Of a stretch of 58,843 bases of DNA, positions 2,982 through 57,000 are shown piece by piece (the stretch's first letter is position 1; each line of letters begins with the position of its first letter). The stretch is taken from positions 124,482 to 183,324 of the forward strand of contig CAZLAD010000001.1 in NCBI GenBank assembly GCA_964557535.1, written 5' to 3'. This DNA is from an uncultured Candidatus Saccharibacteria bacterium (GTDB lineage Bacteria > Patescibacteriota > Minisyncoccia > Phycocordibacterales > CSBR16-119). The notes below the pieces were generated by a model. It was not told where the DNA came from and ran no database searches. It saw nothing but the letters and a program-made list of their open reading frames with translations. The position numbers and the translations under genes are program-made.

Positions 2982-4199
2982 TTACATCGATTTTACTGTT
3001 TCGATAGCTTTTTGCAACTGCGTGTCTGTTCGGTCTTTTTTGTATTTTTCTATATCGAGCTCAACTTCAACGTCTGGTTTCAACCCTTGATCAGAGATAG
3101 AAATACCGTTTGGCGTGTACCATTTTGCCACAGTCATTTTAAGTGCGGTGTCGGATTTCATTGGAAGTAGTTCCTGAACAGAACCCTTACCAAAAGTTTC
3201 TGTACCAACGAGTGTTGCCCTTTTGTGTTCCTGCAGAGCACCGGCCATGATTTCTGAAGCCGATGCAGATCCGCCGTTTATCAAAATAACTAAATTATAG
3301 TCTCCATGCATATAGTTTTTTGAACTAACGTAAGTTCTGTTGTAGTTCTCGTCACGGGATTTTTCACTGACAATTGTCGTATCTTCTGGCAAAAACCAAC
3401 TAGTTATATCTATAGCCGAAGCCAAATATCCCCCAGGGTTGTTACGCAAGTCTATGATTAGATTTTTTGTCCCTGAGTTTTTGAATTCTGTTAGGGCTGT
3501 TTCAAATTCGCGACTAGAATTTTTACCAAACTGGAAAAAACGAATCAAGAAGACATCTTCTTTGGTCAAAAACTCTGTTTCTATAACCGGAATTTTTATA
3601 ACATCGCGAGTAATTTCTATGTCTTTACTTTCTTCCAAATCTTTTCTAATAATCGTGATTATTACTTTTGTGCCGGCCTTACCACGTATTTTTTCGACAA
3701 CTTGATCTACGTCGAGACCGGTTACCAACATATCGTCTACTTTTAAAATTACGTCCCCTGATAGAACGCCGGCTTTTTCAGCGGGTGAATCTTTGAGCGG
3801 TGCAATGACAGTTATATTTCCGTCTTTTATACCGACCTCCATGCCTACTCCAGAAAAATGCCCAGACAAATCGATGTTTAGGTTTTCGGTTTCTTTTGGT
3901 GGAAGAAAAGTGGTGTATGGATCACCTAATGATTCTGCAAGGCCCTGAATCGCTCCCCACATCTTTGTCTCTGAGTCTACATTTTCTCCGTCAGGATGTT
4001 TGGCTTTAAGCGTGCGCCAAACTTCCCAAAATTGTTCCATGTCGATGTTTTCTGAGACCAGATCTGCTGGTACATAGGAAGTAGCATTTGCGCCCAGAGT
4101 GTTACCCGAGACGACACCGCTATTTACTCCAGCTAAAAATCCAACCCCGAGCGTTACAACCAAAGCTAAAATTAAAAGGAATGTTTTTCTATTCTTCAT
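2982..4199 (-). CDS. ctpA: S41 family carboxyl-terminal processing peptidase
   Basis: Signal anchor, a PDZ-like segment (GVLSGDVILKVDD), the catalytic region INGGSASASEI and a downstream K. Confidence 0.9.
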   Translation of the reverse strand: MKNRKTFLLILALVVTLGVGFLAGVNSGVVSGNTLGANATSYVPADLVSENIDMEQFWEVWRTLKAKHPDGENVDSETKMWGAIQGLAESLGDPYTTFLPPKETENLNIDLSGHFSGVGMEVGIKDGNITVIAPLKDSPAEKAGVLSGDVILKVDDMLVTGLDVDQVVEKIRGKAGTKVIITIIRKDLEESKDIEITRDVIKIPVIETEFLTKEDVFLIRFFQFGKNSSREFETALTEFKNSGTKNLIIDLRNNPGGYLASAIDITSWFLPEDTTIVSEKSRDENYNRTYVSSKNYMHGDYNLVILINGGSASASEIMAGALQEHKRATLVGTETFGKGSVQELLPMKSDTALKMTVAKWYTPNGISISDQGLKPDVEVELDIEKYKKDRTDTQLQKAIETVKSM

Positions 4200-6133: not shown

Positions 6134-6830
6134 AACTGACAATGACGACAAACTCGCCCCGAACCTTATCGGGATTTATTTTGAAATAGTTTAGAACTTC
6201 TGTTGCCGAGCCCGAGATTGTTTCTTCGAAGACTTTCGTCAGTTCGCGAGCGATGACGACCTTTCTGTCTTCTGGCAAATATTTCACGAGCGACTCCAGC
6301 GTCTTCATAATTCTGTGCGGAGATTCGTAAAAAACCGCAGTCTTAAGTATCGAGGTTGAACCTTGATACTTAGCGATTTCTTTGAATAACGTTTCCCTAC
6401 CCTTTTTGTGCGGGAGGAATCCATAGAACGTAAATTGCGGGCTTGGAATTCCGCTGATCGAAAGTGCGGCGGTTAGGGCTGAAGCTCCGGGGACAGCCAC
6501 GATTTTGACTTCGGGAAGCTCACGCTTGATCATCTCGATAAGCATGACACCAGGGTCTGAGATAGTCGGTGTGCCAGCGTCCGATACGATGGCGAGGGAT
6601 TTGCCTTCGCGGAGGAGGTCGAGAATCTTCTCGTGTTTGGAGAGCTTGGACTGGGCATGATAGCTCATGGTGGGCGTCCCTATGTCGTAATGGGCAAAAA
6701 GCTTACCCGTGACCCTAGTATCCTCGCAGAGCACCATATCGACGCTTTTAAGCGTCTCCAGAGCCCGAAAAGTCAGGTCTCCAAGGTTTCCTATAGGTGT
6801 GGCTATAACGTATAAAATGCCGTTTTGCAT
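6132..6830 (-). CDS. rsmI: 16S rRNA (cytidine1402-2'-O)-methyltransferase
   Basis: ILYVIATPIGNLGDLTFRALETLKSVDMVLCEDTR is the canonical RsmI N-terminus. Confidence 0.93.
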   Translation of the reverse strand: MQNGILYVIATPIGNLGDLTFRALETLKSVDMVLCEDTRVTGKLFAHYDIGTPTMSYHAQSKLSKHEKILDLLREGKSLAIVSDAGTPTISDPGVMLIEMIKRELPEVKIVAVPGASALTAALSISGIPSPQFTFYGFLPHKKGRETLFKEIAKYQGSTSILKTAVFYESPHRIMKTLESLVKYLPEDRKVVIARELTKVFEETISGSATEVLNYFKINPDKVRGEFVVIVS

Positions 6831-6844
6831 GGAGATTATAATAC

Positions 6845-6873
6845 TTGACTAAGAGTTAAAAGTCTAGTATAAA
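6845..6873 (+). promoter_or_regulatory. sigma70-type promoter (TTGACT-17 nt-TATAAA)
   Basis: TTGACT 6845-6850, 17-nt spacer, TATAAA 6868-6873, 20 nt upstream of the small ORF at 6894. Confidence 0.55.
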
Positions 6874-6893
6874 ATAAAAAACCCCCAACGATC

Positions 6894-7058
6894 ATGAAAA
6901 CCCAACGTCGCTGGATCTTGTCTATACTTATAGGCGTAATAATAAGGGAATTCTTTATACCGTTAGATCTATCGCTTTTTGGTCACGCATGTGCAGTATT
7001 GCTGACGGTGGCAGTAGTGCTTGGGTCATACTTTGTACTACCCACCAGACGAGGTTGA
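6894..7058 (+). CDS. 54-aa membrane protein (absent from the ORF track, <60 aa)
   Basis: MKTQRRWILSILIGVIIREFFIPLDLSLFGHACAVLLTVAVVLGSYFVLPTRRG. Bracketed by promoter 6845-6873 and terminator 7081-7108. Confidence 0.5.
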   Translation: MKTQRRWILSILIGVIIREFFIPLDLSLFGHACAVLLTVAVVLGSYFVLPTRRG

Positions 7059-12515: not shown

Positions 12516-13319
12516 CTAAACTTGTTTTTTGCCGGGTTCTGGGCCGGCAGCCTGCATATAAAATACGGTAATCAAAGAACCAAAAACGATTGTTTGAATA
12601 AGAGCGCCAAGCATACCAAACGCAATCCAAAATGACGGTAAAACGAAGGCAAAAATACCCAACAAGACAGTCGTCATAACATCTCCGGCGTATAGATTAC
12701 CAAAGAGACGCAATGAAACCGATATCACTTTAGCAAACTCACCAACAATATCAAGGCAAGCAATCATCAAGGTGACAAATACGTATATTGGACTCATCGC
12801 CCCCATGCGTATGTCTTTTTTAAGTTGCGCTATTGGAATGTATTTTCCCAAATAACCCAAAATCCCAAAATCATTTATCGAGATAATATGGATCACAATA
12901 AGTGAACCAAGGGCCAAGCCAAACGTCATATTAAAATCGGCTGTTGCTGTGCGGAAAAGCGTTTTTCCATCAAAAGTAATACTGGAGAGACCCGGAATAA
13001 GTCCCATGTAATTTGAAACTCCGACGAATATAAAAATTGAAGCAATAATCGCAAAAACTCGTCCAGTGTGGTATTCGCTACCGGTGATTGTTTTGATCTG
13101 ATTATGTACCGCCTCAAATACAAGCTCGAAAAATGCTTGAGCCCGGCCCGGCACGAGACTTTTCTTTCTAAAAGCAAAGATACTAAAAACGATAACAATA
13201 AAAGTTATCAAAAATATAAAAATAGTTGAGTTGGCTATTGGGAAATTGCCGATATTGAAAATCGTTTCTGGTCCAATGCTTGAAATATCTCTTTTGAAAT
13301 TTATAATTTCTGAATTCAT
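12516..13319 (-). CDS. atpB: F-type ATP synthase subunit a
   Basis: Polytopic protein with the essential Arg motif SLRLFGNLYAG. Confidence 0.95.
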   Translation of the reverse strand: MNSEIINFKRDISSIGPETIFNIGNFPIANSTIFIFLITFIVIVFSIFAFRKKSLVPGRAQAFFELVFEAVHNQIKTITGSEYHTGRVFAIIASIFIFVGVSNYMGLIPGLSSITFDGKTLFRTATADFNMTFGLALGSLIVIHIISINDFGILGYLGKYIPIAQLKKDIRMGAMSPIYVFVTLMIACLDIVGEFAKVISVSLRLFGNLYAGDVMTTVLLGIFAFVLPSFWIAFGMLGALIQTIVFGSLITVFYMQAAGPEPGKKQV

Positions 13320-13615
13320 ATACTGTCTATTTCGGCTTCTCTTTTACTGACGTATTCTTTTATTTCCTTAGAGATTTTTTTGTTATTTCTAAGGACAATA
13401 ACCCAAGAAGAAATAAAAGCGATGAGCAGAAGTCCGAGCGTTATGTATTTACCGGTTTCGAACTTGTTGTCTAGAAATTTACCTAGAAAAAGTGCCGCAA
13501 AAGCCGGCACGGCAAAAATGGGAATATTCATGAGCGACGCATAAAAAAATTTATTCGTCATTTTGTTGTATTCTGACTCAGCTCCAATTTTTCTAAAATT
13601 TTGTCGATTTTTCAT
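13316..13615 (-). CDS. AtpZ/AtpI family small membrane protein
   Basis: First gene of the atp operon, with a 4-nt overlap onto atpB. FAVPAFAALFLGKFLDNKFETGKYITLGLLLIAFISSW matches the AtpZ/AtpI two-helix pattern. Start uncertain (13615, or 13561 at MTNKFF). Confidence 0.65.
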   Translation of the reverse strand: MKNRQNFRKIGAESEYNKMTNKFFYASLMNIPIFAVPAFAALFLGKFLDNKFETGKYITLGLLLIAFISSWVIVLRNNKKISKEIKEYVSKREAEIDSI

Positions 13616-13620
13616 AAAAT

Positions 13621-13643
13621 GCAAAAAGGCCCCGAAGAGCTTG
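13621..13643 (-). terminator. short UUCG-loop hairpin plus T-run downstream of the tRNA locus
   Basis: The minus strand reads aagctc-ttcg-gggcct followed by ttttgcatttt. The stem is weak (4-6 bp). Confidence 0.35.
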
Positions 13644-13684
13644 TATATTATACACCTAAACTTTCTGTATAGTCCAAACCCCTG

Positions 13685-13723
13685 TGCGCGTGGTAGGAAT
13701 CGAACCTACGACCTCTGTCTTAT
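13685..13723 (-). pseudogene. orphan 3' half of tRNA-Ile(GAU): anticodon-loop ATAA through discriminator
   Basis: 39 nt identical to the 3' half of the intact copy (ATAA GACAG AGGTC GTAGG TTCGATT CCTAC CACGCGC A). No 5' half is adjacent. Confidence 0.8.
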
Positions 13724-13781
13724 AAATCCGAACGAGAACCAGAGAAAATTTCATTTTATCTTGGTTCGAGCGATGGATTCA
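13724..13781 (-). repeat. 58-nt imperfect hairpin between the orphan 3' half and the tRNA cassette
   Basis: Outer arms aaatcc/ggattc(a) and inner arms gaaccaga/tcttggttc, with an A/T loop. Confidence 0.45.
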
Positions 13782-13783
13782 TA

Positions 13784-13928
13784 CAATTTTGAAAATGGAA
13801 AAGCTACAACCCATTGTGCGCGTGGTAGGAATCGAACCTACGACCTCTGTCTTATCAGGACAGCGTTCTACCACTGAACTACACGCGCACGATGGGCTCT
13901 AACCATCTTTTCCCATTTTCAAAGATTG
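13784..13928 (-). mobile_element. 145-bp cassette bounded by 20/22-nt inverted repeats and TA dinucleotides, carrying an intact tRNA-Ile (MITE-like; no transposase)
   Basis: caattttgaaaatggaaaag (13784-13803) is the reverse complement of cttttcccattttcaaagattg (13907-13928), apart from two 1-nt indels. TA lies immediately outside both ends (13782-83, 13929-30). Confidence 0.45.
13817..13888 (-). tRNA. tRNA-Ile (anticodon GAU), intact
   Basis: GCGCGTG TA GTTC AGTGGTA GAAC G CTGTC CTGATAA GACAG AGGTC GTAGG TTCGATT CCTAC CACGCGC A. All four stems are perfect; A14, G18G19, U33 and TTCGA are present; no encoded CCA. Confidence 0.9.
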
Positions 13929-13964
13929 TATCAGGACAGCGTTCTACCACGAAACTACACGCGC
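13929..13964 (-). pseudogene. orphan 5' half of tRNA-Ile(GAU): acceptor through anticodon-loop CTGATA
   Basis: GCGCGTG TA GTTT CGTGGTA GAAC G CTGTC CTGATA. Two substitutions relative to the intact copy, including C at the invariant A14 position. Followed by the cassette arm rather than a 3' half. Confidence 0.8.
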
Positions 13965-13974
13965 GATGGCAAGT

Positions 13975-14003
13975 ACTATAACAAAACTTTGCCGTAAATT
14001 CAA
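13975..14003 (-). promoter_or_regulatory. promoter reading into the tRNA locus (TTGAAT-17 nt-TATAGT)
   Basis: On the minus strand, TTGAAT (14003-13998), 17-nt spacer, TATAGT (13980-13975). The -10 ends 10 nt upstream of the orphan 5' half's first nucleotide. Overlaps the divergent prmC promoter. Confidence 0.5.
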
Positions 14004-14017
14004 TAGAATGCTAAATT
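13989..14017 (+). promoter_or_regulatory. prmC promoter (TTGCCG-17 nt-TAAATT), leaderless geometry
   Basis: The -10 ends 7 nt before the ATG at 14025. Confidence 0.45.
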
Positions 14018-14024
14018 CAGTTTC

Positions 14025-14774
14025 ATGGACAAAGAATTTGCGTGGTTACTCCAAGATAAATATGCTGGAATAAAAACTCCTGAATTTAAAAAGGATGCTC
14101 AAAAGCTAAAAGCCGGAATACCCTTAGCTTACGTCATTGGTTGGGTACCTTTTTTAAAGACCAAAATCTGGCTTGATTCTCGTCCTCTTATCCCCCGCCC
14201 CGAGACAGAATATTGGGTAGAAAAAGCCATTTCCGAAATTAAGACTCGAGGTTCGACCTCCAGTCTTGGGATTTTGGATTTGTGTGCCGGGTCGGGGTGT
14301 GTAGGTGTCGCGGTTTTAAAAGCAATTCCAAATGCAAAAGTGGCTTTTGTAGAAATTGACAAATCACACCATGAAACGATCAAGAAAAATATTTTGGAAA
14401 ATGGAGTTGGTTTGTCACGTGCAAAAATTATTGGTGGAAATCTTTTTGAAAACGTCACCGAAAAATATGATTTTATTTTGACAAATCCGCCATATATCGA
14501 TCCAAGACTAGCCGAAAGAGTCACCGAAAGCGTCACAGCTCACGAACCCGAACAAGCCCTGTGGGGTGGCGAGGGCGGTATGGAAATTATTGAAGTGATA
14601 ATCAAAGAAGCACCGAAATTCCTAAATCCGGGCGGAGTTTTGTATATCGAACACGAACCAGAACAGGTAGAAGCTATAAAATCCCTAGCGCCCAAAGCGG
14701 AGATTTTCGAAGATCAATTTGGAGTTGCTAGGTTTTCAAAAATTTCTTTTTTGAGCAATTTATTCATCGTCTGA
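14025..14774 (+). CDS. prmC: peptide chain release factor N(5)-glutamine methyltransferase
   Basis: SAM motif [11 protein letters not shown] and catalytic NPPY (LTNPPYI). Convergent with, and overlapping, prfA. Confidence 0.9.
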
Positions 14775-45638: not shown

Positions 45639-47660
45639 TTAAGTAGAGACATCTCTCACTTCATTGATAATCTTTGATTCTATATGCTCCAAATCTTTCA
45701 AGATTCTTGATTCTGTGGCAATTTCTTCGTCTGTAAGCCCTCTGCCTTCTTTTAGTTTTTTGAATATTTCTTTCTCTTTCTCTATATCACTATGAAGCAA
45801 TCTAAATCCATTTCGGATTGCTTCTTCTGCTTCGCGTACTTCTTTTATAAAATCTTGCTCTTTTTTCTTTGTTTCTCTATGGAAGTGAAGGATGTATGCC
45901 AAGAGACCAACGGTCACGACAACAAAGAATATAAACAAGATGAGATAAATCGTTCGAAAACTGAGTCTCGATCCGCCAATTTGAAGCGCTGTCTCTTCCA
46001 CGATAACACGCTCTTGGGCAGATGGAGGACTAACGAACTCGGCAAATGACGCTTGTGACCAAATAAGGTATTCCCCACCATTAAGGAAACCATCGTGTCG
46101 ATAGAACCACTCGCCCTTGTTGTCTGCTGTAACAACCCGGCTTTGTGTTTCGTTAGTTTTTTCGTTTTGTATATAGATAGTAACCGTTGATTCTCCAATG
46201 TCTACCTCACCACCGACATAAAAAATCTCTTCATTAGAAATATTATTAGATATTGCGGTAATAATAGGCGGAGTGAAGGTAACATCTTCTGCAAAAACAA
46301 TACTCGAAGAAAAAACGAACGAAGAAAACACTAAAAGGAAAAAGAGTGAAATATTTCCATACTTACTTCTGTATTTTTTAAGTTCCTCAAGCTGATCTTT
46401 TAATTTTTCAGAAACATCATATTTCCCCTTTCGATGATGAAGAGTATCGTGTCGTCTTTTAATGTAAACAAAAAGAATCGTAAGTGCAGCAATGACAAAC
46501 GCTATAATACCGATAAAAACTTGCCACGACACAAAGAAAGAATTTCCCAACTTTATCCCTTCAACAGAGGCAAAGCTAAAAACTTTACCGTAGAGAACCA
46601 TTTTTTCTGTAATATCTTTGAAATTTCCAGCCTGATCATAAGCTCGTACAACGACATCATATGAGCCAAGATCTAGGTTTTCCAAAATAAATGGACTTTG
46701 AGCTTCAATAAAGAATGGCTGATTACCCTCTACCAAGGAGGCGTTTTCTGATAACGGGATAATCTTTATTTCGTAATGATCGAGTCCGGAAAGTTGGTCA
46801 CTGGTACCAAATTTTATAATCGGTTTTGTCGAAGAGGTTTTACTAGAAGGTAGGATATCAACCTTAAAATCCGCCGGTGGTGTAGCGTCGATATAGGAAG
46901 CGAAATGTGTTTCCCCGCCCCAGATGCCATCACGCAAAGCTTTTATATGAAAATAGTACTGACCGTCTGATAAATCTTTGTAAGAAATAAATCGCTGAAT
47001 ACCCTCAGAAATATCGTCTATAACACTGACTGGCTCTTTGTTTAAAACATAACTATATCCAGAAACATTTTCTTCGTTTGCCCAACGCAAAACAAGATTA
47101 TTTTTAGAATACCATTTTGATTGTTCTGGATGAGTTTCGGAAACAACAATCGGACCAGCTGGTGGTGGAAGCTTGAGTTCAAATGAGGCGTTTACTTTAT
47201 TGGTCAAAACATCTGTTCCTAAACCATCATTAAGTAAGACCCTTGAAGCATCTTGGAACTTCACAATCGCAGAACCGACTGATTTCACTCGAAATGTGAG
47301 TGTGGCGACCATAGCACCAGAAAGATTTACGCCACCAGGAATTCCACCCTGAAGAGTAATCGTTCCTGTTTGATTATTAAACTTAGGCTGACTAGTCCAG
47401 ACCGAGATAATCGACTGGGATGTTTTTGGAGAGACGAGTTGCAATTTTTCCGGCGGAAATTTCAGCTCGACATCGATTGCATTAATTGATTCTCCTTCGG
47501 TATCAAGCATTATTGAAATATCAAATGTCGAATCTACATCAAAAGATGCTGTACTTGGTGTGATTTTAAGCTTGGCAGCAAACGTGGTGCCGGAAAAACC
47601 GAAAAATAAAAACAGAGTCAAAAAAACAAAAAATATATATTTATTAGAAATACCACCCAT
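45639..47660 (-). CDS. cohesin-like domain membrane protein (673 aa, 3 TM, Ig/FN3-like ectodomains)
   Basis: Signal peptide, then ITPSTASFDVDSTFDISIMLDTEGESINAIDVELKFPPEKLQLV...GTITLQGGIPGG...ATLTFRVKSVGSA...LLNDGLGTD (cohesin-type pattern). Internal TM helices and a cytoplasmic coiled tail follow. Confidence 0.7.
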   Translation of the reverse strand: MGGISNKYIFFVFLTLFLFFGFSGTTFAAKLKITPSTASFDVDSTFDISIMLDTEGESINAIDVELKFPPEKLQLVSPKTSQSIISVWTSQPKFNNQTGTITLQGGIPGGVNLSGAMVATLTFRVKSVGSAIVKFQDASRVLLNDGLGTDVLTNKVNASFELKLPPPAGPIVVSETHPEQSKWYSKNNLVLRWANEENVSGYSYVLNKEPVSVIDDISEGIQRFISYKDLSDGQYYFHIKALRDGIWGGETHFASYIDATPPADFKVDILPSSKTSSTKPIIKFGTSDQLSGLDHYEIKIIPLSENASLVEGNQPFFIEAQSPFILENLDLGSYDVVVRAYDQAGNFKDITEKMVLYGKVFSFASVEGIKLGNSFFVSWQVFIGIIAFVIAALTILFVYIKRRHDTLHHRKGKYDVSEKLKDQLEELKKYRSKYGNISLFFLLVFSSFVFSSSIVFAEDVTFTPPIITAISNNISNEEIFYVGGEVDIGESTVTIYIQNEKTNETQSRVVTADNKGEWFYRHDGFLNGGEYLIWSQASFAEFVSPPSAQERVIVEETALQIGGSRLSFRTIYLILFIFFVVVTVGLLAYILHFHRETKKKEQDFIKEVREAEEAIRNGFRLLHSDIEKEKEIFKKLKEGRGLTDEEIATESRILKDLEHIESKIINEVRDVST

Positions 47661-47662
47661 AA

Positions 47663-48580
47663 TTATTTTTTCTTGTGAAGATATTCAATGAGTTTTGATA
47701 AGCCGAATACCAAAACCACTAAACCTATAATTATTATAGCAATTTTGTAAGCTTTATTGATGAAACTATCCCCAGAAGCGTCAAGAGTCGGAATAATTTC
47801 AATAATGTTTTCGTTACCCGCAAAATCAACAGACTTCACGTAAATAAAACTCTTCAACTTTTGATCTTTCAAGATGGCAGGATTTTCTATCTCTCGCCAT
47901 TTTATTTCTTCGTTACCATAGAGTGTATCGAGTGGTAGTTGAATTTTCGATTCGAGCATATAAAATGATTCAACCCCTGAATCTGAATCTTCTGCACTAA
48001 ATGCTAAGAAATATTTACTATCAAAAGCCTTGTCGGTCTTTATAATACTTGCAACAAAGTTTTCTGGTGAAGACGCGTCACTAAGAATATCTTTAATTCT
48101 CCAAATTTTAGTATTATTCTTCTTCGGTAAAATATTAACGGAAGTATTGGTCATTGTAACCACATCACTCGTACCAGAACCATCGTTTAACAAGACCTTT
48201 ATATTGGTTAGACCGATAGATGCCCGACCTTCTCTGAGTGTTTTAAAGAAAAGTGTCACAACTTTACCGTTTGTGCCACGAAAACCTCCGGGGATAAGCC
48301 CTGAGAATTCAACCCTTCCAGAAGATGATTTGGGCTTAATACCCTTCAACCAATATTTCACAATGGAATCGCCCGTCTTGGGAGCTTCAAGAGAAACAAA
48401 TGTTGGATCAAATGTAATAGTACCGGAAATAGCATTTATTGGCTTGTCGGCTGTTATGAGAATAGTTGTTTGAATATACTCTCCCAAAGCAACATCTTTT
48501 GCTGGACTAAAAAAGACATCCGACGCCAAAGCGGTGTTAGCGACCAGAAATATTGTAAGGATTAAAAATAGGTGCTTCAT
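47663..48580 (-). CDS. cohesin-like domain protein with C-terminal TM anchor (305 aa)
   Basis: FFSPAKDVALGEYIQTTILITADKPINAISGTITFDPTFVSLE...GRVEFSGLIPGG...VTLFFKTLREGRA...LLNDGSGTSD parallels the N-domain of the previous gene. C-terminal TM segment. Confidence 0.7.
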   Translation of the reverse strand: MKHLFLILTIFLVANTALASDVFFSPAKDVALGEYIQTTILITADKPINAISGTITFDPTFVSLEAPKTGDSIVKYWLKGIKPKSSSGRVEFSGLIPGGFRGTNGKVVTLFFKTLREGRASIGLTNIKVLLNDGSGTSDVVTMTNTSVNILPKKNNTKIWRIKDILSDASSPENFVASIIKTDKAFDSKYFLAFSAEDSDSGVESFYMLESKIQLPLDTLYGNEEIKWREIENPAILKDQKLKSFIYVKSVDFAGNENIIEIIPTLDASGDSFINKAYKIAIIIIGLVVLVFGLSKLIEYLHKKK

Positions 48581-48583
48581 AGA

Positions 48584-49378
48584 CTAAATATCTGTCCAAT
48601 ACGACATCATAATACTAAAATCAACTATATCGATTATACCATCCTTGTTGAGATCAAATTCTTCTGGGAATCCATCTCTTTCAAACCAATAAATAAGCAC
48701 GGAAAAATCAATCAAATCAACACGTGTATCTTGATTGAGATCTACTTTTATCCCATCTCCACTAATTGGTGTAAACTCAAAATGGACAGGAACAGTCTGA
48801 TAAGATCCGCTACCACCACTACCGCTCGAACTTCCGCCACCGCCAGGACCCGAAGGTGTGACCGAGACTTCGTTTGAAGTTGCAGTCGGATCTCCTAGAG
48901 CATCGAGTGCGCGAACTACGAAGTAATACGTGGTGCCATTTGTAAGCCCGGTTACTGTATCGAGCAAAACATTCCCCACATTGGTATACGTATATCCTGA
49001 ACCAGAGGTTGTTGACTGACCGATTTCATACCCAGAAATATTTAAACCAAGCGAACCAACAGATGCCGTCCATGAGAGATCAGCTTCGGTGTCACCAGAA
49101 ACCCCGCTCAAAACTGGATTAGAAACGGTCGCAAAATATAAAAATCCCGCCAAATCAGTGAAATTTGTACTGGAACTCTCTCCAATCACTGTCTGGGCAA
49201 TACTAGAAAAATATTTAAAACTCGAAGAAGAAGAAAATCCTCCAGCCGGTGCAATTACCGGATCACGCAAGATAAAACTTGAACTCGTGTAATCTTCGGC
49301 AAGAGTAACTAACGGTGAAAAGACGACAGAAAAAATCGTCAGGAATAACCCCAAAAAGAAAGAAGAAGGAATCTTCAT
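48584..49378 (-). CDS. secreted FN3-domain protein with C-terminal type I dockerin-like duplicated Ca-binding repeats
   Basis: Signal peptide and an FN3-like segment (ADLSWTASVG...GYEIGQSTT...GTTYYFVVRALD). The C-terminus has DLNQDTRVDLIDFSVLIYWF and DLNKDGIIDIVDFSIMMSYW (two DxNxDGxIDxxDF segments). Confidence 0.75.
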   Translation of the reverse strand: MKIPSSFFLGLFLTIFSVVFSPLVTLAEDYTSSSFILRDPVIAPAGGFSSSSSFKYFSSIAQTVIGESSSTNFTDLAGFLYFATVSNPVLSGVSGDTEADLSWTASVGSLGLNISGYEIGQSTTSGSGYTYTNVGNVLLDTVTGLTNGTTYYFVVRALDALGDPTATSNEVSVTPSGPGGGGSSSGSGGSGSYQTVPVHFEFTPISGDGIKVDLNQDTRVDLIDFSVLIYWFERDGFPEEFDLNKDGIIDIVDFSIMMSYWTDI

Positions 49379-50085: not shown

Positions 50086-51081
50086 TTATTTACTAATTTG
50101 ATCGTACACGAACTTTGACAATTCCCGAATAGAGTTCTCCTGGGCCAAAAAATCAGTTCCTCTTGTCATAATGCAAAGAATATATGGTTTTTCTGGATAG
50201 TAAATAATTCCACAATCATGAAGTTGTGTTTGTTTTTCATCTCCGTTTTCGACAAACGAACGCTCACCAAACTTATGAGCAACAACGATATTGCTTGGAA
50301 CCCCTGCAACAATGCCATTTTTATATTCGGACACAGAGAGAATTTCAAGAGCAAGTTCAGACATTTCACGATTAAGATATGAGGCATTATAGAGAATACG
50401 GAAAAATCCAGCATAATCTTTGACTCGTACAATCGGCTCTGTTTTTGTATCAATAAATGGAACACCGATTGCCGAGAAAATATTTTTTATCTGTTTTGGA
50501 TCTGTGTGGTTCAAGATCGTCTGAGCAGCTATGTTGTCTGATCTCGTAATCATCGAATCTAAAATTTCTAAATATGAATATTCCTCTCCCACGACAACGG
50601 TACCCGAAGATGGTATATTTTGTTGAACCTTTATATCATCTTTTATACTGATGGTTTCTTTTTGATTCAATACTTCTACTTCTGATTCAATGCTTTTCAA
50701 AAAGGCCATCATGGTTGGGACCTTCAGTAAACTTGCTGGGTAAAACTCCTCTTTCTCTTCAATACCAATCCACTGCCCGTTGTTTAAGTCTCGGTAGTAG
50801 AGCGATATGTGATTTACACCATCCTCCCTTAATTCATCAACTTTTTTATTAATAAGACCGATTGGAATAGCTGTTTCACTCCCCGATACCAAATTTTCAT
50901 AATCAAGTATTGGGTTTGTTAATTTGTAAGTATTGTTAACATCTCGAGCGATAGATCCGGCGCTCACACTTTGTTCCCTTTTCCCAGAAAAAAGAAGCAC
51001 TCCAATAATACAAATAAGAACAATATTTATAATAAATAATATTTTTTTATCAGGAATTTTGATTTGCATTCGAATTTTCAT
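50086..51081 (-). CDS. beta-lactamase-fold (class A-like) serine hydrolase, membrane anchored
   Basis: SxxK (ASLLKV), SDN (RSDNIAA) and a KTG-like HKFGE motif. The ATG overlaps the giant gene's stop (TAATG). Confidence 0.65.
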   Translation of the reverse strand: MKIRMQIKIPDKKILFIINIVLICIIGVLLFSGKREQSVSAGSIARDVNNTYKLTNPILDYENLVSGSETAIPIGLINKKVDELREDGVNHISLYYRDLNNGQWIGIEEKEEFYPASLLKVPTMMAFLKSIESEVEVLNQKETISIKDDIKVQQNIPSSGTVVVGEEYSYLEILDSMITRSDNIAAQTILNHTDPKQIKNIFSAIGVPFIDTKTEPIVRVKDYAGFFRILYNASYLNREMSELALEILSVSEYKNGIVAGVPSNIVVAHKFGERSFVENGDEKQTQLHDCGIIYYPEKPYILCIMTRGTDFLAQENSIRELSKFVYDQISK

Positions 51082-54000
51082 TATAGTTCAGTCCCATCTG
51101 TCGAGCCAGAGCCCTCGTCACCACCATCGCTTGTTTGGTCACCGCCCGATGGTTCGCCATCCGAAATATCCTCTCCTCCACCATTTCCTTCGGTAGTAAC
51201 GTCAGAACCCGTATCTCCTCCACTATCCCCCTCTCCTTCTACCACCACTTCTTCCCCGCTTCCATCTTCAACAACCCCATCTTCCATTCCACCCTGATCA
51301 TCAACATCTGGTTCTGGCTCTGGTTGTGGTTCAGGCTCGGGCTCTGGTTCTGGAGCAGGTTCAGGTTCTGGAGCGGGGTCTGGCAAAGGCTCTGGTTCTG
51401 GAACAGGATCTGGAACTATTTCATCACCCGTCGGCACACCTTCGGTTGTTATAGCCCCGTTCACCGCAAGCGCAATCCATGAGAATTTAATATCCTCTGT
51501 AGCAGGCTGATTGAGAAGGATGGTAAATCCATTGACACTTTTTCTGGTGACTAGATAATTAATTCCTGAACTAAAGAATGCATCTTCGATGGTTGTATCT
51601 CCCAACACTTCACCTTCAACTGATTCCAAAGATATGTCGGCGCTGATGACTGGCTGTGTCAGATACGGTGTTGTGAAGACAATATCAACTTTCTTGGCTC
51701 CTTGTTTGATGACGGCAAATCCTGCGGTGTCGGAGTTAAAGTATGGTCGTCCGAAAAATACAACATCGTTCATCATATTGATCGCGGTGCCAAATGAGCT
51801 GATTGAATCGACAGTCAAACCTTCTGTATAAACTGACGGTGCAATAATCTCGACAGCGGCGGCAACTTTGTCCGTAAAGATACTTTGAAGTTCTGTGTCT
51901 TCATCGTATGTTGCTTTTGTGGCCTTGAGGAACGCCATGATTTCTTTTTCTGTCTTGATTGGATCATCGGCCAAGATTTCAGTTTCGAGTCCGCCAATAT
52001 CTAGATTTTCAAACTCACCATCAACATATTTTTGTGCGAGTTTATCTATATTTTCACCAAGCGAATCTGACAGTCCAACAAACACCATCGCATACCCGCA
52101 CAATTCTTCATCGCTATCTTCGTCAATATCAGATCCTTGAGAATCATTCACACTATCTTCTTCAAGATCACCCTCTCCAGCATCACTAGACACAACTCCT
52201 GGGCCATCACCTATTGCTTCGTCCAAATTTTCTGGAAGTGGAGCATCACACGAGTTCATAATTTCTGGCTCATTCAGCACTGTTCCAATAACAGCACCAG
52301 CTTTTGTGGCTTTCATCGCATAACCAAACTTACTCGATGATGTAAGTTTATCTCCAACATGAATCATGCCATTTTGGTTCGTAACTTTTACAGGAATTCG
52401 TCCAGCGAGGGCAACAGCATAAGCATTTGGAGCTGAAGCACCGATGGTTAGGGCAGGCTGTGTAGATACTACGCCGAGTAAATTCGTTTGATATGGAAGC
52501 ACTGACTGACTAATACCAGCTGGCTGGTCTGGCTGAATCGCCACGACATCTCCTGGCTCAAGTACACTATTTGAATAATAGTATTCGGCAAGGTCAGCAG
52601 ATCCGACGGCCCCAAATTCTAGACCTGAAGCCTGCATACCGTCGGCAATAAGCTCAGCACGGATGAGATTGATATTTCCGGCCAAGAAATCAAGCTCCTG
52701 TTGAACGTCTTTGTCTGGCATTTCTATCCACGTAGCAGCAGCAGAGCCCGTCGCGAGAATTCCTGATCTGACATCAATTGCTTGCATATCGTCATAATCA
52801 GTTCCTGTCCACTCTGAACCAGAATTGTCTGTTTTTTCACTATCTCCATGATAGACATCGCTTACAAAACTGTTTCCGAATCCTCCGAACACTGTCATAC
52901 CTCCGCCATCAGATCCTTGATCCGTACCAACATACAAACTCTGAGTTCTGCCCATAAATGGTTCTGTTGTTGCACCAACAGAAGAAACAATATTTGATGA
53001 ACCATAGAGAAATTCTGGCTTGATGGCAAAATCAGAGTCAGTTGATGGTGTGCTACTCCACGCAGGGCTGACCGTAAGAGTTGTTGCGGTATTTGAAGAA
53101 ACCCTGCGAGTTTGCCCCGCACCCGTACCGCTTGTAATCTCAACAATTTGACCGACGAATTCATTTGGAATCCAAGATTCTCCAGAATCAACAATCGTTG
53201 TTGAGGTTGCAGAGGTTGCATCACTAACCGCGATTGTTTTATGCTTCATTGCTTCAAGACCAGCAAGATATATCTTTCTTACTTGTGCTTGGTTTAATGT
53301 ATCAGTTGTTGTGGCACCTCCCATCGCAAAAACTAATTCATCCATGTCTCCATTGAAGAATTCCGCGGCTGTGGCACAGTTGGCAGAATTACACTTAGCA
53401 CCAACAGCAAGCATACTTTCAGCTGTTTCAAGAGTGGCTGTAGAAGATACACCTGTATCGGAAGCGACGAGCTTACCATCAACATAGAGGAAGAGACCAA
53501 CCGCCGCGTTTGCTCGCTGGAAGAACACATGGTGCCATTGGCTATCATCATAATCGTCTGTTGAACTTCCTGTATCTTCCGGGAATGTCGAGGTGTCATC
53601 GTCGACGCCAAACGCAACCTGGCCTGTGGTTGTAAGCCAAATTCTCCATCCAGAACCAGCTGTTCCAGCAGCAATCATCGTCTTGTCTACAAGTGTTTGA
53701 AGCGCGGAAACAGTTCCATTCGTCTTGAACCAAAATGATACGTGAAATGCCGTTGTTGTGCTTCTGAAATCTGTTTCAACGTCACAGGTACCATCATTGT
53801 TAACATCAGAACAAAGATAATCTGCAGACCCGTCAAATCGAAGACCATACCCACGAACACCATTCACGCCATATGTCGGTGCATTTTCTGGCTCCAAGAC
53901 ATTGTTTGTAAGCGCTGCATCAGTAAGATCTCCCGATGTATCTTCAAATTCATACATTCCTTTGTTCGTCGCTGCCATGTAATCTGTCTGCATTGCATTC

Positions 54001-57000
54001 GTATAAAACTTTGACCACGGCTGAACGGTTGCGGCAGAAACTCCATTCGTGTCGTGAATCTCTGTAAGACCGAGAGAGTGTCCAATATACAAAACATCTC
54101 CACGTCCCGTCGCCACCGTATCGACTTCGGCATAGGAACACTGTTCGCATACTTCAAGAGCATCCGGGGCGTTTGTGGCAATCGTCGGCGCTGATTTCCA
54201 AAGTGATGCTGGTCGTGTTGCTCCGTCAAAGAATTTTGATGCGGTGGTGACATCGGCCACCGACGTATCGACTGTGTTATTACCCGTGGTAATAAGACCA
54301 AAGCGATCTACCGATGAGTCTGTGGAATTAAGTCCGAAAAGTCGTCCACGTCTAGTCAAATAAACGGATTGATAGTTATCAGTTATAGCGCCACGACCGA
54401 AATCGTATGTGACTTGTTGAGCTGTATTTACCACCGATATACCGTCGTCTGTTGCAGCCACAGCAAATGTCACACCGTTTAATGGTCCTCCGTTTGTAAG
54501 CACGTTTGATCCTCCTTGAATAGTTGCAGCATGAACATCGTTCACCAAGTTACTATTCAAAGCCATGTTGGTCTTGGAATTTACGTTATAGGTAACCGTA
54601 GAATTTCTACCTGATATCGCTACATCTGCTTGACTGGCATTCGTGGTATTGTATCTAATCATCTTGTCCCCCGGGAAATCAAAGGCATACATTCCTGTTC
54701 CTGAAGATCCGTTGGTACCAACATAAATGATACCGTTTTGTGCAAATACCGATGACGGATTATTGTTTGAATCTGCACCCAAAGCACCCGTCGAAGCTTG
54801 TGTAAATTTCATCCATAGGTTATTTGAGTTAGCGTCAAAAATATAGAGTGCGTCGTTTGTCGCAGTAAGAATTGCTTTCTTAGGAAACGCTGATGTTCCG
54901 CAACGATCATCCGATGAAATATTACAAGCATCTCCCGCACCATCGTCTTTTGACTCTGTATACCAAGACACGACTTGTGATTTTGATGAATTTGTCCACG
55001 CACCACCATCAGTATCTCGTGCAGTGTCGTAAACAAAGACATCGTTTACATTTGAAATTGCGGTCTGGTCTATATAACCCTTTCTTACGATACTTCCATA
55101 AACATCCAGGTCGCCTCTACTTGCAGTACTTCCAACCGCAAGAAGTGTGCCCACCCCTGATGTGCCGTCAACGATAGAGAGTGTTCCTCTGTCAGTGAGT
55201 TGGAAGGTCACACTTGCATCTGCAAATTCGATGTCGCTATCAAAACCGGTTCCAATATAAAGTCCTGTCTCTGTTGCCGCTGTCGGCGTAATATTGTTGA
55301 GCGTAAGTCCTCGTAAAACATCGCCCGCAGCAGTACCACCGTTGGTGAGGGTGATATCGAGAGCACTGTTGGTATTGTCTGACCCATCTCCTGTGACAAA
55401 GTTTATCGCAAGCCCATCAACACCCGCTGTCGTCGTACCAAATCCCGCATTTGTGAGAGCTATTTGATCAACTGTTGGTGCAGCCGTTGCTGTAGCTTGG
55501 AAGTTTGTTCCTGCCGCCATATTAAGGATAAAATCTGATCCAGCGGTTGGTGCAAACGTGATAACTCCCGCATCGCTAAATGTCGCAATGTCTGTTGATC
55601 CGTCACGGATAGCAAAATCTCCAGAAGAATCCATGTCGATCGTAAATGCATTTGTGCCAAGGTTTATGTCGGTAGCTTCGTCGATATCTAAACTATTTTC
55701 AAGATCGATAAAATCAAGAGAGTCTGCGCTAATAGATCCTCCTCCACAAGAACCCCATTTGAAATCTCCTCCGCCAGAAGTTTCGTATTGTAGACATTCT
55801 CCATCTGCAGCCGCGCCATCTTCGGTGGCATAATCAAGATCAGCGGCAGCAATCGTACCGTCAAGAATTTCTGTGGTAGTCACCGCACCGGAGTCTATAT
55901 TCCACGTTGTACCAGAACCAGACACGGTTATATCTCCATAGTCAGCATCAGCTAAAGAGCCTGTACTGTCTGTCGAACAATCCCATGTATCAGTATCTTC
56001 TTCCCATTTCAAAATTCCTGCATCAGAACAACCCTGAAGAAGTGTGAGTCCATCTCCCTCTGTTTCAAGACCTGTTGCAGATGTTGTAATACCAACACCA
56101 TTACCTCCACCAAACAACGTTATCGAATCTGCATCAATAAATCCTGTTCCAAGAGTAAGTGCCACATCACTTGAACCAACGGTGATCGTTCCACCAACAT
56201 CAATATTTCCTGATGAACCAACAACGTCAAAGTTTGTGTAGTTTATATCGCCAGTTGAACCAGAAAGTGTTTGAGTTCCCATGGCAATAGTTCCACCAGC
56301 AGTGAAGGCGCCCAGTGTATCAGTTGAGTTATCAAAAGTAATTCCGCCATTGGCAGCAACAGCCGCTGTAAATGTCGCGCCGGCACCAGTAAATGCAGTC
56401 GTGGCAACTGTACCAATTGTTCCAGAAGTGGTGATTGCGTCCGCCCCAACATCAATCGCACCAAAGCCTGAAGTAATTGATCCAGCGTTAAGTGCCCCAA
56501 CAGTTGTCACATTTGAAAGAGTATCAAGCGCAGTTTCGATGTTTGATTCTGTCGTCGCATCAACAGTAAGACCTCCAGAAGTTGCAAGTACCCCAGTGAC
56601 AGTCACATCATTTGAGAATGTTACAATTCCATTTCCAAACGTTATCGTCGTATCTGTGCCAGAAACGTCAAATGTCCAAACGTTTGAGGCATTGGCACCA
56701 TCAGACCAAGTAGTGCTGTCGACTGTTGTAGAGTCAAAGCCCCCTCCTCCTGTGACATCCGCTTCACAATTCCAGTCATCGTCTGTCTCATCCCATTTCA
56801 ATATTTCATTGTCAGCACAACCCTGAAGAAGGGTCAACTGACCAGATTCAAATTCAAGTCCAGATGCTGATGAAGCAGTACCAACGCCATTTTCTGTAGA
56901 AGTTTTTAAATCAACCGCCACATCGTCACCAGTAAGCACCGTTCCGTCTCCGGCTGTTAAGTTAATATCATCAGAGACATCGAGTCCTGCGACATTACTC

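Follow-up and report, generated by a model that had tools for sequence, protein, structure and literature searches.

tRNA genes are classic landing sites of mobile DNA, with the anticodon loop serving as a classic crossover site for integrases, and the rule so far is that an arriving element restores the tRNA upon insertion or, in the case of tRNA-dependent lysogeny, brings a replacement within a large genome. Small palindromic elements, such as Correia/NEMIS in Neisseria, the Rickettsia palindromic elements and IS630-derived MITEs, measure 100-150 nt, exhibit inverted ends of 20-26 nt and TA flanks, and insert inside genes, where the long hairpins of their transcripts could be cleaved by RNase III; these families are multi-copy, possess conserved termini and carry no tRNA. 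Intervening sequences in tRNAs include the Azoarcus tRNA-Ile group I intron, which measures ~205 nt and lies in the anticodon loop, and the split tRNAs of Nanoarchaeum, in which complementary arms join two halves. Quasi-palindrome template switching and microhomology-mediated templated insertions (Ripley; Lovett) lead mostly to point or short-patch mutations. For mycobacteriophages, integration has been shown to disrupt a tRNA gene whose loss is made good by a tRNA of that isotype borne on the element; what integrates is an entire prophage, equipped with a tyrosine integrase, arm-type sites and a core of ~10 bp, and the phage tRNA is located elsewhere in the genome (Guerrero-Bustamante & Hatfull 2024, PMC10865867). 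Integrating elements are also the usual source of tRNA gene fragments, and in the known cases a single fragment marks the distal end of an island of kb scale that carries an integrase, the complete gene being a host/element hybrid (van der Gulik et al. 2023, PMC9897764).

Here we describe a tRNA-Ile(GAU) locus of a Patescibacteria (CPR) bacterium, contained in a 58.8-kb stretch of DNA (the window) that was compared with related loci (L-numbers), in which an intact tRNA gene lies between the two halves of another copy. The intervening sequence of about 205-208 nt contains no ORF, and the locus is situated between prmC and the atp operon (Table 1). The window holds 62 ORFs of at least 80 aa, and the 30 larger ones, scanned against Pfam, were housekeeping genes or had no Pfam match. 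When the DNA was first read from its sequence alone, this reading knew of no described bacterial tRNA-in-tRNA arrangement of this type, and our literature searches likewise found no description. We give about even credence to a gene-in-gene replacement, in which a second tRNA-Ile gene unit recombined into the resident anticodon loop in direct orientation.

Table 1. Features of the nested tRNA-Ile(GAU) locus and its neighbours (window coordinates).
Feature	Position	Strand	Remarks
prmC (release-factor methyltransferase)	14025..14774	+	divergent neighbour, synteny anchor; Pfam MTS
Outer (resident) promoter TTGAAT-17-TATAGT, TG-extended -10	13975..14003	-	homologous promoters in relatives
Outer 5' half of resident tRNA-Ile, positions 1-37, ends CTGATA	13929..13964	-	
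Arm 1 CAATCTTTGAAAATGGGAAAAG	13907..13928	-	22 nt, 5' strand of stalk; TTGAAA -35-like box
Inner leader ATGGTTAGAGCCCATCGT	13889..13906	-	GCCCAT pairs with trailer
Inner tRNA-Ile(GAU)	13817..13888	-	intact, 72 nt, no encoded CCA
Inner trailer CAATGGGTTGTAG	13804..13816	-	pairs with leader
Arm 2 CTTTTCCATTTTCAAAATTG	13784..13803	-	20 nt, followed by TA (13783-13782)
Imperfect hairpin, 58 nt	13724..13781	-	3' strand motif TGGTTCTCGTTCGG, which also occurs in L027 and L107 spacers
Outer 3' half, ATAAGACAG to discriminator A + CA	13684..13723	-	native trailer follows
atp operon promoter-like site TGGACT-18-TATAAT	13647..13676	-	kept in relatives; outside the insertion
atpI-like ORF and atpB	12516..13624	-	downstream neighbours, synteny anchors

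Read along the minus strand, the locus comprises in turn promoter, 5' half, arm 1, intact tRNA-Ile(GAU), arm 2, hairpin and 3' half, and each coordinate that the sequence-only reading had assigned to these elements was correct. The same is true of its claims that the inner tRNA is intact and folds properly, that the two arms are the reverse complement of each other barring two 1-nt indels, that C has replaced the invariant A14 in the outer 5' half, and that the outer gene is the sole one with a recognisable promoter, there being no other good one upstream of the inner tRNA. ARAGORN called the inner tRNA as tRNA-Ile(gat) and the Rfam model RF00005 matched it with 78.1 bits (E=1.7e-15; gathering threshold 29 bits); it is identical to the single tRNA-Ile in L011, L109 and L114 and is presumed to be the functional gene. 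The outer 5' half shows 34/36 identity to the inner copy, the changes being C13>U and A14>C: both are seen in the cloverleaf of the conceptual spliced product, and L108 exhibits the canonical TTCAG where the outer 5' half of the window is mutated. For the outer 3' half an identity of 39/39 to the inner copy (13723-13685) had been stated, and this identity reaches 13684, making it 40/40. The inverted repeat of the arms contains ungapped cores of 15-17 nt with 76-93% complementarity. The 145-nt arm-to-arm unit has TA on both sides (13930-13929, 13783-13782), and the hairpin, if the A of 13723 is counted in, becomes a palindrome of 59 nt between TA flanks. The intact gene has a fragment to either side, at distances of 40-93 nt.

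The 291-nt stretch is predicted to fold with -111 kcal/mol (z = -7.15), and 0/200 shuffles fold as well. In the MFE structure the outer acceptor stem closes around a long stalk bearing the inner tRNA, and in the centroid fold the outer anticodon stem also closes around this stalk. The inverted repeat exceeds the arms, running from ATACAAT... via GCCCAT/ATGGGT to the inner acceptor stem with one internal bubble, and U-1/G-2 of the inner leader lengthen that stem. The leader/trailer duplex has a predicted energy of -37.4 kcal/mol (z = -7.8); among 84 loci, strong leader/trailer stalks are limited to the window, L031, L107, L078 and L049, and the sequences of these five are unrelated. Promoters homologous to the outer one precede the single tRNA-Ile in L011, L109, L116 and L108. 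Arm 1 and the inner leader resemble the outer promoter region of the same locus (p = 0.006, 46-column gapped alignment), and thus the insert looks like a second tRNA-Ile gene unit, not like an unrelated element. A comparable leader duplication was found in L027 (p < 0.001, insert against tRNA-Ile gene unit); in L031, L107 and L037 the sequence upstream of the inner tRNA showed no significant similarity to the local promoter, and the L037 insert carries TTGAAT-17-TATTAT.

The nearest relatives possess one uninterrupted tRNA-Ile at the prmC/atp locus (L011, L109, L116/L118), and beyond the outer 3' half the downstream flank of the window can be aligned to that of L011, L012 and L109. These orthologous empty sites support the proposal that an ancestral uninterrupted gene received an insertion; the further description as a self-complementing insertion also holds, given the empty sites, the intact inner tRNA, the decayed outer half and the recurrence across lineages. 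In L012, which belongs to another species, a homologous right arm occurs at the matching position (23/30, p < 0.001); the L012 contig begins at tRNA position 1 and the comparison hence covers the right arm. The trailer that follows the intact tRNA in L012 is homologous to the inner trailer of the window, and L012 is without the 58-nt hairpin. The outer 3' half is identical in the two loci while the spacers are only ~77% identical: such a perfect half is not expected of a long-neutral relic and needs recent events, gene conversion or function.

Extra tRNA halves occur at ~11/96 related tRNA-Ile(GAU) loci, compared to ~1/59 for other tRNAs in the same DNA, and the loci concerned appear from their sequences to represent about eight lineages. 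In all cases the halves have the same direct orientation as the intact gene. Breakpoints lie mostly in the 7-nt anticodon loop, with others at positions ~4, 12, 23, ~48 and ~60, and the junction overlaps amount to 0-3 nt (0 nt in L107). Decay of the outer halves varies from none (identical sequence) to heavy (L082, L037, L022, L031); they are truncated or heavily mutated in L031, L037, L022 and L023, and in L107 and L012 the inner tRNA and the outer pieces differ. A trailer motif is common to the inner units of L037, L082, L027, L023 and L022 and absent in the empty-site locus L104; the unit with this shared trailer ('type-i') is patchy on the AtpI tree. A motif TGGTTC(n)TCGTTC is enriched in the spacers of the window, L027 and L107, which align poorly, and could represent either the remnant of a T-loop (GGTTCGA) or a site with a function. 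Two further loci deserve mention: in L049 a 312-nt element with inverted terminal repeats splits a tRNA-Ile relic, and in L115 a truncated tRNA-Ile adjoins high-GC foreign DNA.

Several other explanations of the locus have to be weighed. That conserved tRNA repeats were chained wrongly in a metagenomic assembly is barely credible, even though the two 3' halves form an exact 40-nt repeat, Logan contigs built with k=31 break at this repeat (those from the atpB side end there) and several related contigs begin or stop inside the tRNA. All junction k-mers have to be present in reads, and junction 13928/13929, the one of three (the others being 13723/13724 and 13783/13784) that is covered by independent contig support, was confirmed by 4 Logan contigs from 4 sequencing runs: these contain the mutated outer 5' half and lead from prmC through this half and arm 1 to the inner tRNA, with an identical path from 5' half over arm 1 and leader to inner tRNA in all 4 independent runs. 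The unique segment of trailer, arm 2 and hairpin fits only between two 3' halves, and like architecture with other sequences is present in JGI, ENA and NCBI assemblies. A look-up of the spurious ORF 13563-13877, which crosses the right-hand junctions, found no record. Very unlikely, too, is a functional long-intron or split tRNA, in which the arms would join the outer halves and RNase P/Z would free the inner tRNA, the outer halves being ligated or acting as a nicked tRNA so that one transcript gives two tRNA-Ile. The outer acceptor stem (MFE) and anticodon stem (centroid) do pair around the insert, the conceptual spliced product still scored as tRNA-Ile(GAU), and the outer 3' half is perfectly kept and the same in the window and L012 despite differing spacers. 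Against this stand the loss of the invariant A14 from the outer 5' half, the truncated or heavily mutated outer halves of L031, L037, L022 and L023, and the single uninterrupted gene that suffices in relatives; ARAGORN did not call the outer gene with introns allowed. A group I intron, as suggested by the ~205-nt size and the anticodon-loop position, was rejected: Intron_gpI (RF00028) had no match at E <= 10 in 13400-14300 or in ten related loci, and none of the possible 3' boundaries of the insert (…GGATTT/A/T/A) ends in G. An archaeal intron was rejected as well, since the 4-bp helix between 3-nt bulges of a bulge-helix-bulge (BHB) cannot be drawn from the sequence; the predicted fold has a three-way junction there, in which the 58-nt hairpin separates arm 2 from the 3' exon. 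Protein-dependent tRNA splicing is not known in bacteria; neither EndA nor RtcB was found among the Pfam-scanned window ORFs, and no known RNA family (Rfam) was found in the spacers.

A mobile, non-autonomous palindromic tRNA-Ile cassette, homing into the anticodon loop and mobilised in trans in a MITE-like, TA-duplicating manner, is unlikely on the present evidence, and the Tc1/IS630/MITE-like mechanism put forward in the sequence-only reading was not supported: the window and ~750 kb of related loci contain no second copy, the arms of different lineages are unrelated, TA is not general and the scanned window ORFs include no transposase. The cassette reading does account for the order CTGA-TA-[145 nt, 22-nt inverted ends]-TA-[59-nt palindrome]-TA-AGACAG as two successive TA-duplicating insertions, the 59-nt hairpin being a second small palindromic element of similar type, and the TA flanks of both units count to this extent against the replacement view. 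Terminal inverted repeats, as found in MITEs, are present (the 22/20-nt arms), the insert occurs in some relatives and is absent in others, the compact arm-tRNA-arm architecture is seen again in unrelated lineages, L107 and L012 have inner tRNAs distinct from their outer pieces, the 'type-i' unit is patchy compared to the host tree, and the L049 element implies that small elements of such type exist in these bacteria. The TA of the window belongs to the palindrome itself (TACAAT.../...ATTGTA) and is indistinguishable from a junction microhomology of 2-3 nt, and TA duplication is absent in L107 and L031. No other copy of arms or hairpin, which the sequence-only reading had proposed to look for, was found in the window, and ~750 kb of related loci gave matches at noise level only, with no dispersed copies sharing conserved termini in either; no arm sequence common to different lineages was found and the termini differ between them. 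Target-side breakpoints range from position 4 to about 60, the insert resembles a tRNA-Ile gene plus its own upstream region, no transposase, integrase or other recombinase occurs among the 30 Pfam-scanned window ORFs, and two scans of viral contigs, one with the 3'-half and one with the split-5'-half pattern, gave 0 matches. In broader terms, an as yet undescribed class of minimal 'self-replacing' cassette, consisting of tRNA-Ile(GAU) on a palindromic stalk, that spread horizontally in Patescibacteria, homes into the resident anticodon loop and both kills and substitutes the resident gene may be entertained tentatively. Such a cassette would be a selfish element with nothing but a copy of its essential target as cargo; it could be moved by a trans-acting enzyme or by homologous recombination via the ultra-conserved tRNA halves. 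Distinctly improbable is the scar or miniature of an integrase-type element that targeted the anticodon loop and brought its own complementing tRNA, the arms then being two inverted attP half-sites now at attL and attR. Joined as arm 2-TA-arm 1 they would give a ~46-bp palindrome, which we take to be about the size of a serine-integrase attP. The position in a classic integrase crossover site and the direct orientation in all cases are consistent with this origin, as are the truncated tRNA-Ile beside high-GC foreign DNA in L115 and the inner tRNA-Ile(GAU), by which the insert carries a tRNA of the disrupted isotype; there is a mycobacteriophage precedent for such complementation (PMC10865867), and integrating elements usually leave tRNA fragments (PMC9897764). 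The shared core is just 2-3 nt (ATA/TA at both junctions), which is below the at least 7-10 bp expected for a tyrosine integrase, and a 2-bp core would fit a serine integrase. Neither the insert and its surroundings nor the scanned window ORFs contain an integrase, the tRNA is absent from the scanned viral contigs, and the fragments flank the intact gene instead of marking opposite ends of an island. The insert measures 208 nt, and its tight arm-tRNA spacing, on both sides and in three lineages, would not result from repeated random internal deletion of a kb-scale element.

In the gene-in-gene replacement that we favour, the inserted unit would comprise the tRNA, preceded by a short and decayed stretch of promoter and leader and followed by a short trailer, the whole folded as a near-palindrome. 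Transcription would start at the resident promoter and run through the dead 5' half into a stalk of roughly 40 bp that presents the inner tRNA, which would be freed by RNase P, a 3' nuclease and the CCA-adding enzyme, perhaps once RNase III has cleaved the stalk; the outer halves would be relics that are never rejoined. As to its origin, we infer that the ultra-conserved tRNA sequence steered recombination or repair: where a break or a stalled end arose in the anticodon loop, it may have been bridged by copying a homologous tRNA-Ile unit, with a sister copy or DNA taken up from a related species as the template. The arms may have been made or extended by fold-back (quasi-palindrome) template switching with the acceptor stem as seed, and the 59-nt hairpin was probably a later, separate addition. 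Both break-bridging and fold-back switching are deduced here from the arrangement of the sequence, and a site-specific enzyme would also be compatible with the neat palindromic ends and with breakpoints that cluster in the loop. Assuming that tRNA-Ile(GAU) is single-copy, the survivors would be those products that keep one intact copy, and every case would carry its own replacement because only such products survive. A triple tandem duplication followed by two deletions was rejected: it predicts direct-repeat spacers, and the observed ones are inverted.

The replacement logic known from large elements is seen here in ~200 nt, with no enzyme gene and repeated at one tRNA across a large uncultivated group; the recurrence at tRNA-Ile in many uncultivated Patescibacteria points to an undescribed turnover route of an essential tRNA gene. 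Should the unit be mobile, a smaller selfish element would be hard to conceive, and it would be 'addictive' by replacing what it destroys. If it is a repair or recombination scar, tRNA-Ile(GAU) would be a fragile or recombination-prone site in reduced genomes, and the scar would show a route for swapping an essential single-copy RNA gene between species. In practical terms, nested loci break short-read assemblies, and annotation pipelines may miscount the half-tRNA pseudogenes.

Comparison with the known systems reveals partial likeness to each of them. As in the tRNA-dependent lysogeny of actinobacteriophages (PMC10865867), insertion at the anticodon-loop region destroys the resident tRNA gene and the joint shows a short shared core, although the insert is here 208 nt without an ORF, has a 2-3 nt overlap and contains little beyond the stalked tRNA. 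The tRNA fragments of integrating elements (Williams 2002; Reiter 1989; van der Gulik et al. 2023, PMC9897764) share the combination of a complete and a partial 3' copy, the direct orientation and a repeat that begins in the anticodon loop; here, however, the intact gene is bracketed by fragments and inverted arms, and an element body is missing. With the small palindromic elements (Correia/NEMIS, MITEs) the cassette shares size, inverted ends and TA flanks, whereas it was seen in one copy, its arms are lineage-specific, not all lineages show TA and what it carries is its own target gene. Group I introns resemble the locus in placing ~200 nt of intervening sequence in a tRNA-Ile anticodon loop, and the arm pairing of the Nanoarchaeum halves resembles that of the arms described here; unlike either, the 'intron' holds a complete tRNA, the exons decay in other lineages, and there is no Intron_gpI signal, terminal G, BHB or known bacterial endonuclease/ligase pathway. 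In case of quasi-palindrome switching (Ripley; Lovett), a native hairpin, here presumably the acceptor stem, is likewise lengthened outward into a long palindrome, and nearby or homologous DNA is copied with joints of 0-3 nt and no target duplication rule; in contrast to these mutations, the present event is a 150-200-nt insertion that duplicates a whole gene within itself and recurs at one gene phylum-wide.

Reading of the minus strand bore out the layout and coordinates proposed in the sequence-only reading (see table): an intact tRNA-Ile(GAU), called at the same position by both ARAGORN and Rfam, lies within the anticodon loop of a disrupted resident tRNA-Ile, the outer 3' half matches that of the inner copy throughout, and the only good promoter is indeed that of the resident (outer) gene. 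The outer 5' half differs from the inner copy by two changes: C13>U, which keeps the pairing with G22, and A14>C, the loss of an invariant base that had already been pointed out. CCA is not encoded in the inner tRNA.

Features of the nested tRNA-Ile locus, with sites of a motif shared with related loci (L027, L107)
Feature	Position	Strand	Basis or match
Promoter-like site TTGAAT-17-TATAGT, TG-extended -10	14003-13975	minus	sequence
Outer 5' half, 36 nt, ends CTGATA, matches tRNA-Ile positions 1-37	13964-13929	minus	34/36 identical to inner copy
Arm 1, CAATCTTTGAAAATGGGAAAAG	13928-13907	minus	sequence
Leader of inner tRNA, 18 nt, between arm 1 and inner tRNA		minus	sequence
Inner tRNA-Ile(GAU), complete, 72 nt	13888-13817	minus	ARAGORN; Rfam RF00005, 78.1 bits
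Trailer of inner tRNA, 13 nt, before arm 2		minus	sequence
Arm 2, CTTTTCCATTTTCAAAATTG, then TA	13803-13784	minus	sequence
Imperfect hairpin, 58 nt	13781-13724	minus	sequence
Outer 3' half, ATAAGACAG onward	13723-13684	minus	40/40 identical to inner copy
TGGTTC(0-2 nt)TCGTTC sites	window 13727-13740; L027 1105; L107 877 (minus)		pattern search

The 291-nt stretch folds at -111 kcal/mol (z = -7.15), far better than shuffled sequence. In the predicted MFE fold a long stalk, enclosed by the outer acceptor stem, carries the inner cloverleaf at its tip; in the centroid fold the outer anticodon stem is paired as well. Complementarity goes beyond the arms: it takes in GCCCAT/ATGGGT of leader and trailer, then the pairs U-1:A73 and G-2:C74, and reaches the inner acceptor stem. 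Only five of 84 loci have strong leader/trailer stalks (the window, L031, L107, L078 and L049), and the sequences of these stalks are mutually unrelated.

Four Logan contigs from four sequencing runs agree exactly along the path that leads from prmC across promoter, mutated 5' half, arm 1 and leader to the inner tRNA; all four contain the 5' half/arm 1 junction at which an artefact had been considered. Logan contigs from the atpB side end within the exact 40-nt repeat, because k=31 graphs must stop there; the trailer-arm 2-hairpin segment is unique, its only possible position being between the two 3' halves. The same architecture with other sequences occurs in JGI, ENA and NCBI assemblies. As far as can be checked, the nested structure is not an assembly artefact, with independent support covering the left-hand path from promoter to inner tRNA, and we regard an artefact as extremely improbable.

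The locus is flanked by prmC (divergent), prfA and rpmE on one side and by an atpI-like/atpBEFHA operon on the other; a 22-nt tRNA pattern matched nine Patescibacteria/CPR MAG contigs in a search of 185,579 species genomes. Relatives with an uninterrupted gene, as envisaged in the earlier reading, do exist: at the same prmC-promoter-tRNA-atp locus L011, whose AtpB is closest to the window's among the contigs compared (78% identical), carries a single uninterrupted tRNA-Ile of identical 72-nt sequence, and L109, L116 and L118 also have a single uninterrupted gene. L110-L114 and L119-L126 also have one promoter-tRNA module, but in inverted orientation, reading towards prmC. From these single genes, the uninterrupted state is the ancestral and usual one. 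The contig of L012, a different species (AtpB 71% identical), starts exactly at tRNA position 1 and runs from an intact tRNA through 34 nt and ATAAGACAG... into the native downstream flank; this 34-nt stretch is a homologue of the trailer and arm 2 in the window (23/30, p < 0.001), and one base differs between its inner tRNA and outer 3' half. As L012 has this homologue and lacks the 58-nt hairpin, the latter was added separately and at a later time. L109 shares 84.5% DNA identity with L012 and has an uninterrupted gene.

The inversion of the module within the atp operon/prmC interval sets L110-L114 and L119-L126 apart from the window, L011 and L116. An ORF of ~200-230 aa with no Pfam match stands beside the module in most inverted loci, and also in L116 and L118, which share the window's orientation; translated by hand, that of L110 has the look of a secreted protein. 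The tRNA 5' half, promoter and prmC start of L108 are 93-96% identical to window positions 13925-14045, against a prmC average of ~75% DNA identity; local recombination could be the cause, or the divergent promoter region could be under strong constraint.

With a 26-nt pattern from the 3' half, a metagenome scan returned 91 stretches. Of 96 tRNA-Ile(GAU) loci, 11 have half copies adjoining the intact gene; other tRNAs of this DNA gave ~1 in 59. Full nested versions were found in two further lineages: L031, where the outer 5' half is decayed, the arms are 25 nt long, the 3' half is perfect and a terminator-like hairpin of its own is present, and L107, with two 5' halves (acceptor GGGCGAC) around an inner tRNA (acceptor GGGTATG, different at 4/7 positions) and a joint, CCTGA/.../TAAGACAG, with zero duplicated bases. 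Partial versions occur at L027, L037, L082, L022, L093 and L049, and by our reading about eight lineages carry extra halves, in constant orientation. Breakpoints fall mostly within the 7-nt anticodon loop, others at about positions 4, 12, 23, 48 and 60, and the state of the outer pieces varies between identical and hardly recognisable, as would be expected for relics of different ages.

The insert itself looks like a tRNA-Ile gene unit, sometimes apparently foreign. Arm 1 and leader align with the resident promoter region (CAATCT-TTGAAAAT-GGGAAAAG versus CATTCTATTGAATTTACGGCAAAG, then ...CCATC; p = 0.006), 29 nt of the leader of L027 are repeated in the copy upstream of its intact gene (p < 0.001), and the L037 insert contains TTGAAT-17-TATTAT. 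L104, an empty-site relative of L037 and L082, has promoter, trailer hairpin and atpI in common with them; the trailer motif C(A/G)CAGGGYGGTAA, common to the inner units of L037, L082, L027, L023 and L022, is missing in L104. Since the hosts of this motif form two groups on AtpI similarity, each including members without it, the unit has either passed from one lineage to another or undergone repeated loss.

Several of these loci have further peculiarities. On the minus strand of L049 (~6660-6975, oriented sequence) a decayed tRNA-Ile is broken at the variable loop/T stem by an element of 312 nt whose inverted terminal repeats are ~19 nt long (GACCCCTATCTCAATATTA / TAATATTGGGATAGGGGTC), and just downstream an intact tRNA-Ile stands between perfect 18-nt inverted repeats. 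L114 and L115, from two JGI samples, share the same PrmC protein; in L115 high-GC DNA, whose ORFs have no Pfam match, takes the place of the first ~18 nt of tRNA-Ile, and no intact tRNA-Ile is present in the fetched 3.7-kb locus (5-kb contig). Either the contig is chimeric or an element has truly integrated at the D-loop. The minus strand of L107 has, upstream of its 5' halves, tandem ~66-nt repeats, each with a hairpin GTGCCCCGCAGAATGCGGGGC, and a further tRNA. The tRNA-Ile of L071 (positions 51-116) is cut off after position ~66, with TCGTTGTAAAC... in place of the 3' acceptor strand; its upstream flank is the same as that of L094, where the gene is intact. Position 55 of tRNA is almost universally U (pseudouridine); many Patescibacteria tRNA-Ile(GAU) in the scan (L012, L019-L107) have GGTCCGATTCC instead of GGTTCGATTCC in the T-loop, placing C there.

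Elsewhere in the window, an Rfam match to Rickettsia sRNA47 (Rp_sR47; 3134-3328, plus strand; 65.4 bits, gathering score 60) is antisense within an S41 peptidase gene (2982-4199, minus strand) and is probably conserved coding sequence rather than an sRNA. A 2520-aa ORF (51081-58643, minus strand) has no Pfam match at E <= 1e-5, nor do neighbouring ORFs of 673 aa (45639-47660) and 305 aa (47663-48580); with a dockerin/fn3 protein (48584-49378) they look like a block of large surface-type proteins without assigned function.

In the explanation that we favour, and which taken as a whole we regard as evenly balanced, the inner tRNA would be the working gene. Its transcription would start at the outer promoter and include a 76-nt leader; RNase P and 3' processing would free it, and CCA would be added, since the gene encodes none. 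RNase III may cut the stalk, which may also shield the inner tRNA against mispairing with the outer halves; these halves would be relics. A break in the anticodon loop would have been bridged through homology-guided recombination or repair by a tRNA-Ile unit copied from a sister molecule or a related species, and for the arms the best account is fold-back template switching, with the acceptor stem as its seed. Such recombination or repair would explain why the orientation is constant and the insert gene-like, why the joints are 0-3 nt long, why target breakpoints vary and arms are lineage-specific, and why there is no enzyme gene; that each case brings its own replacement would be explained by survivorship, provided that the tRNA-Ile gene is single-copy.

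The sequence-only reading had favoured a MITE-like, TA-duplicating insertion, and CTGA-TA-(145-nt unit)-TA-(59-nt palindrome)-TA-AGACAG, in which the palindrome comprises the 58-nt hairpin and the A of 13723, is the exact product expected from two such insertions. The further copies of arms and hairpin that this reading proposed to look for are absent from the window and ~750 kb of related DNA, termini differ between lineages, L107 and L031 show no TA duplication, the TA belongs to the palindrome itself and target-side breakpoints vary, so that a truly mobile cassette seems rather unlikely. An integrase-type mini-element we consider decidedly improbable: no integrase, transposase or homing endonuclease was found among the 30 ORFs scanned with Pfam (of the window's 62 of at least 80 aa), which were housekeeping genes or had no Pfam match, and the tRNA pattern was not found in IMG/VR viral contigs. 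As to an intron, the window region showed no group I match in Rfam at E <= 10, every possible intron end lacks a terminal G, and attempts to draw a bulge-helix-bulge (BHB) motif at the junction did not succeed; group I and BHB identity were rejected on these grounds, and a functional intron is very improbable. The spacers of ten such loci matched no Rfam family except tRNA at E <= 0.05. All three alternatives are kept alive by what the favoured explanation leaves over: the clustering of breaks in the anticodon loop, the perfect outer 3' half, the TA flanks and the TGGTTC(n)TCGTTC motif. The window and L012 both have a perfectly conserved outer 3' half, possibly through recent events, gene conversion or function; the motif, with a 0-2-nt gap, occurs five times in ~1.5 Mb (both strands), three of them in short spacers adjoining tRNA-Ile halves, and may represent either a T-loop in decay or a site with a function.

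Our literature searches found no account of one tRNA nested inside another in bacteria, and the interest of the locus lies mainly in its recurrence across Patescibacteria and in a possible minimal self-replacing element. Its shape resembles that of Correia/RPE-type palindromic elements. The nested locus shares the logic of tRNA-dependent lysogeny (PMC10865867), and its tRNA fragments are similar to att-site remnants (PMC9897764). It fails the defining tests of all three.
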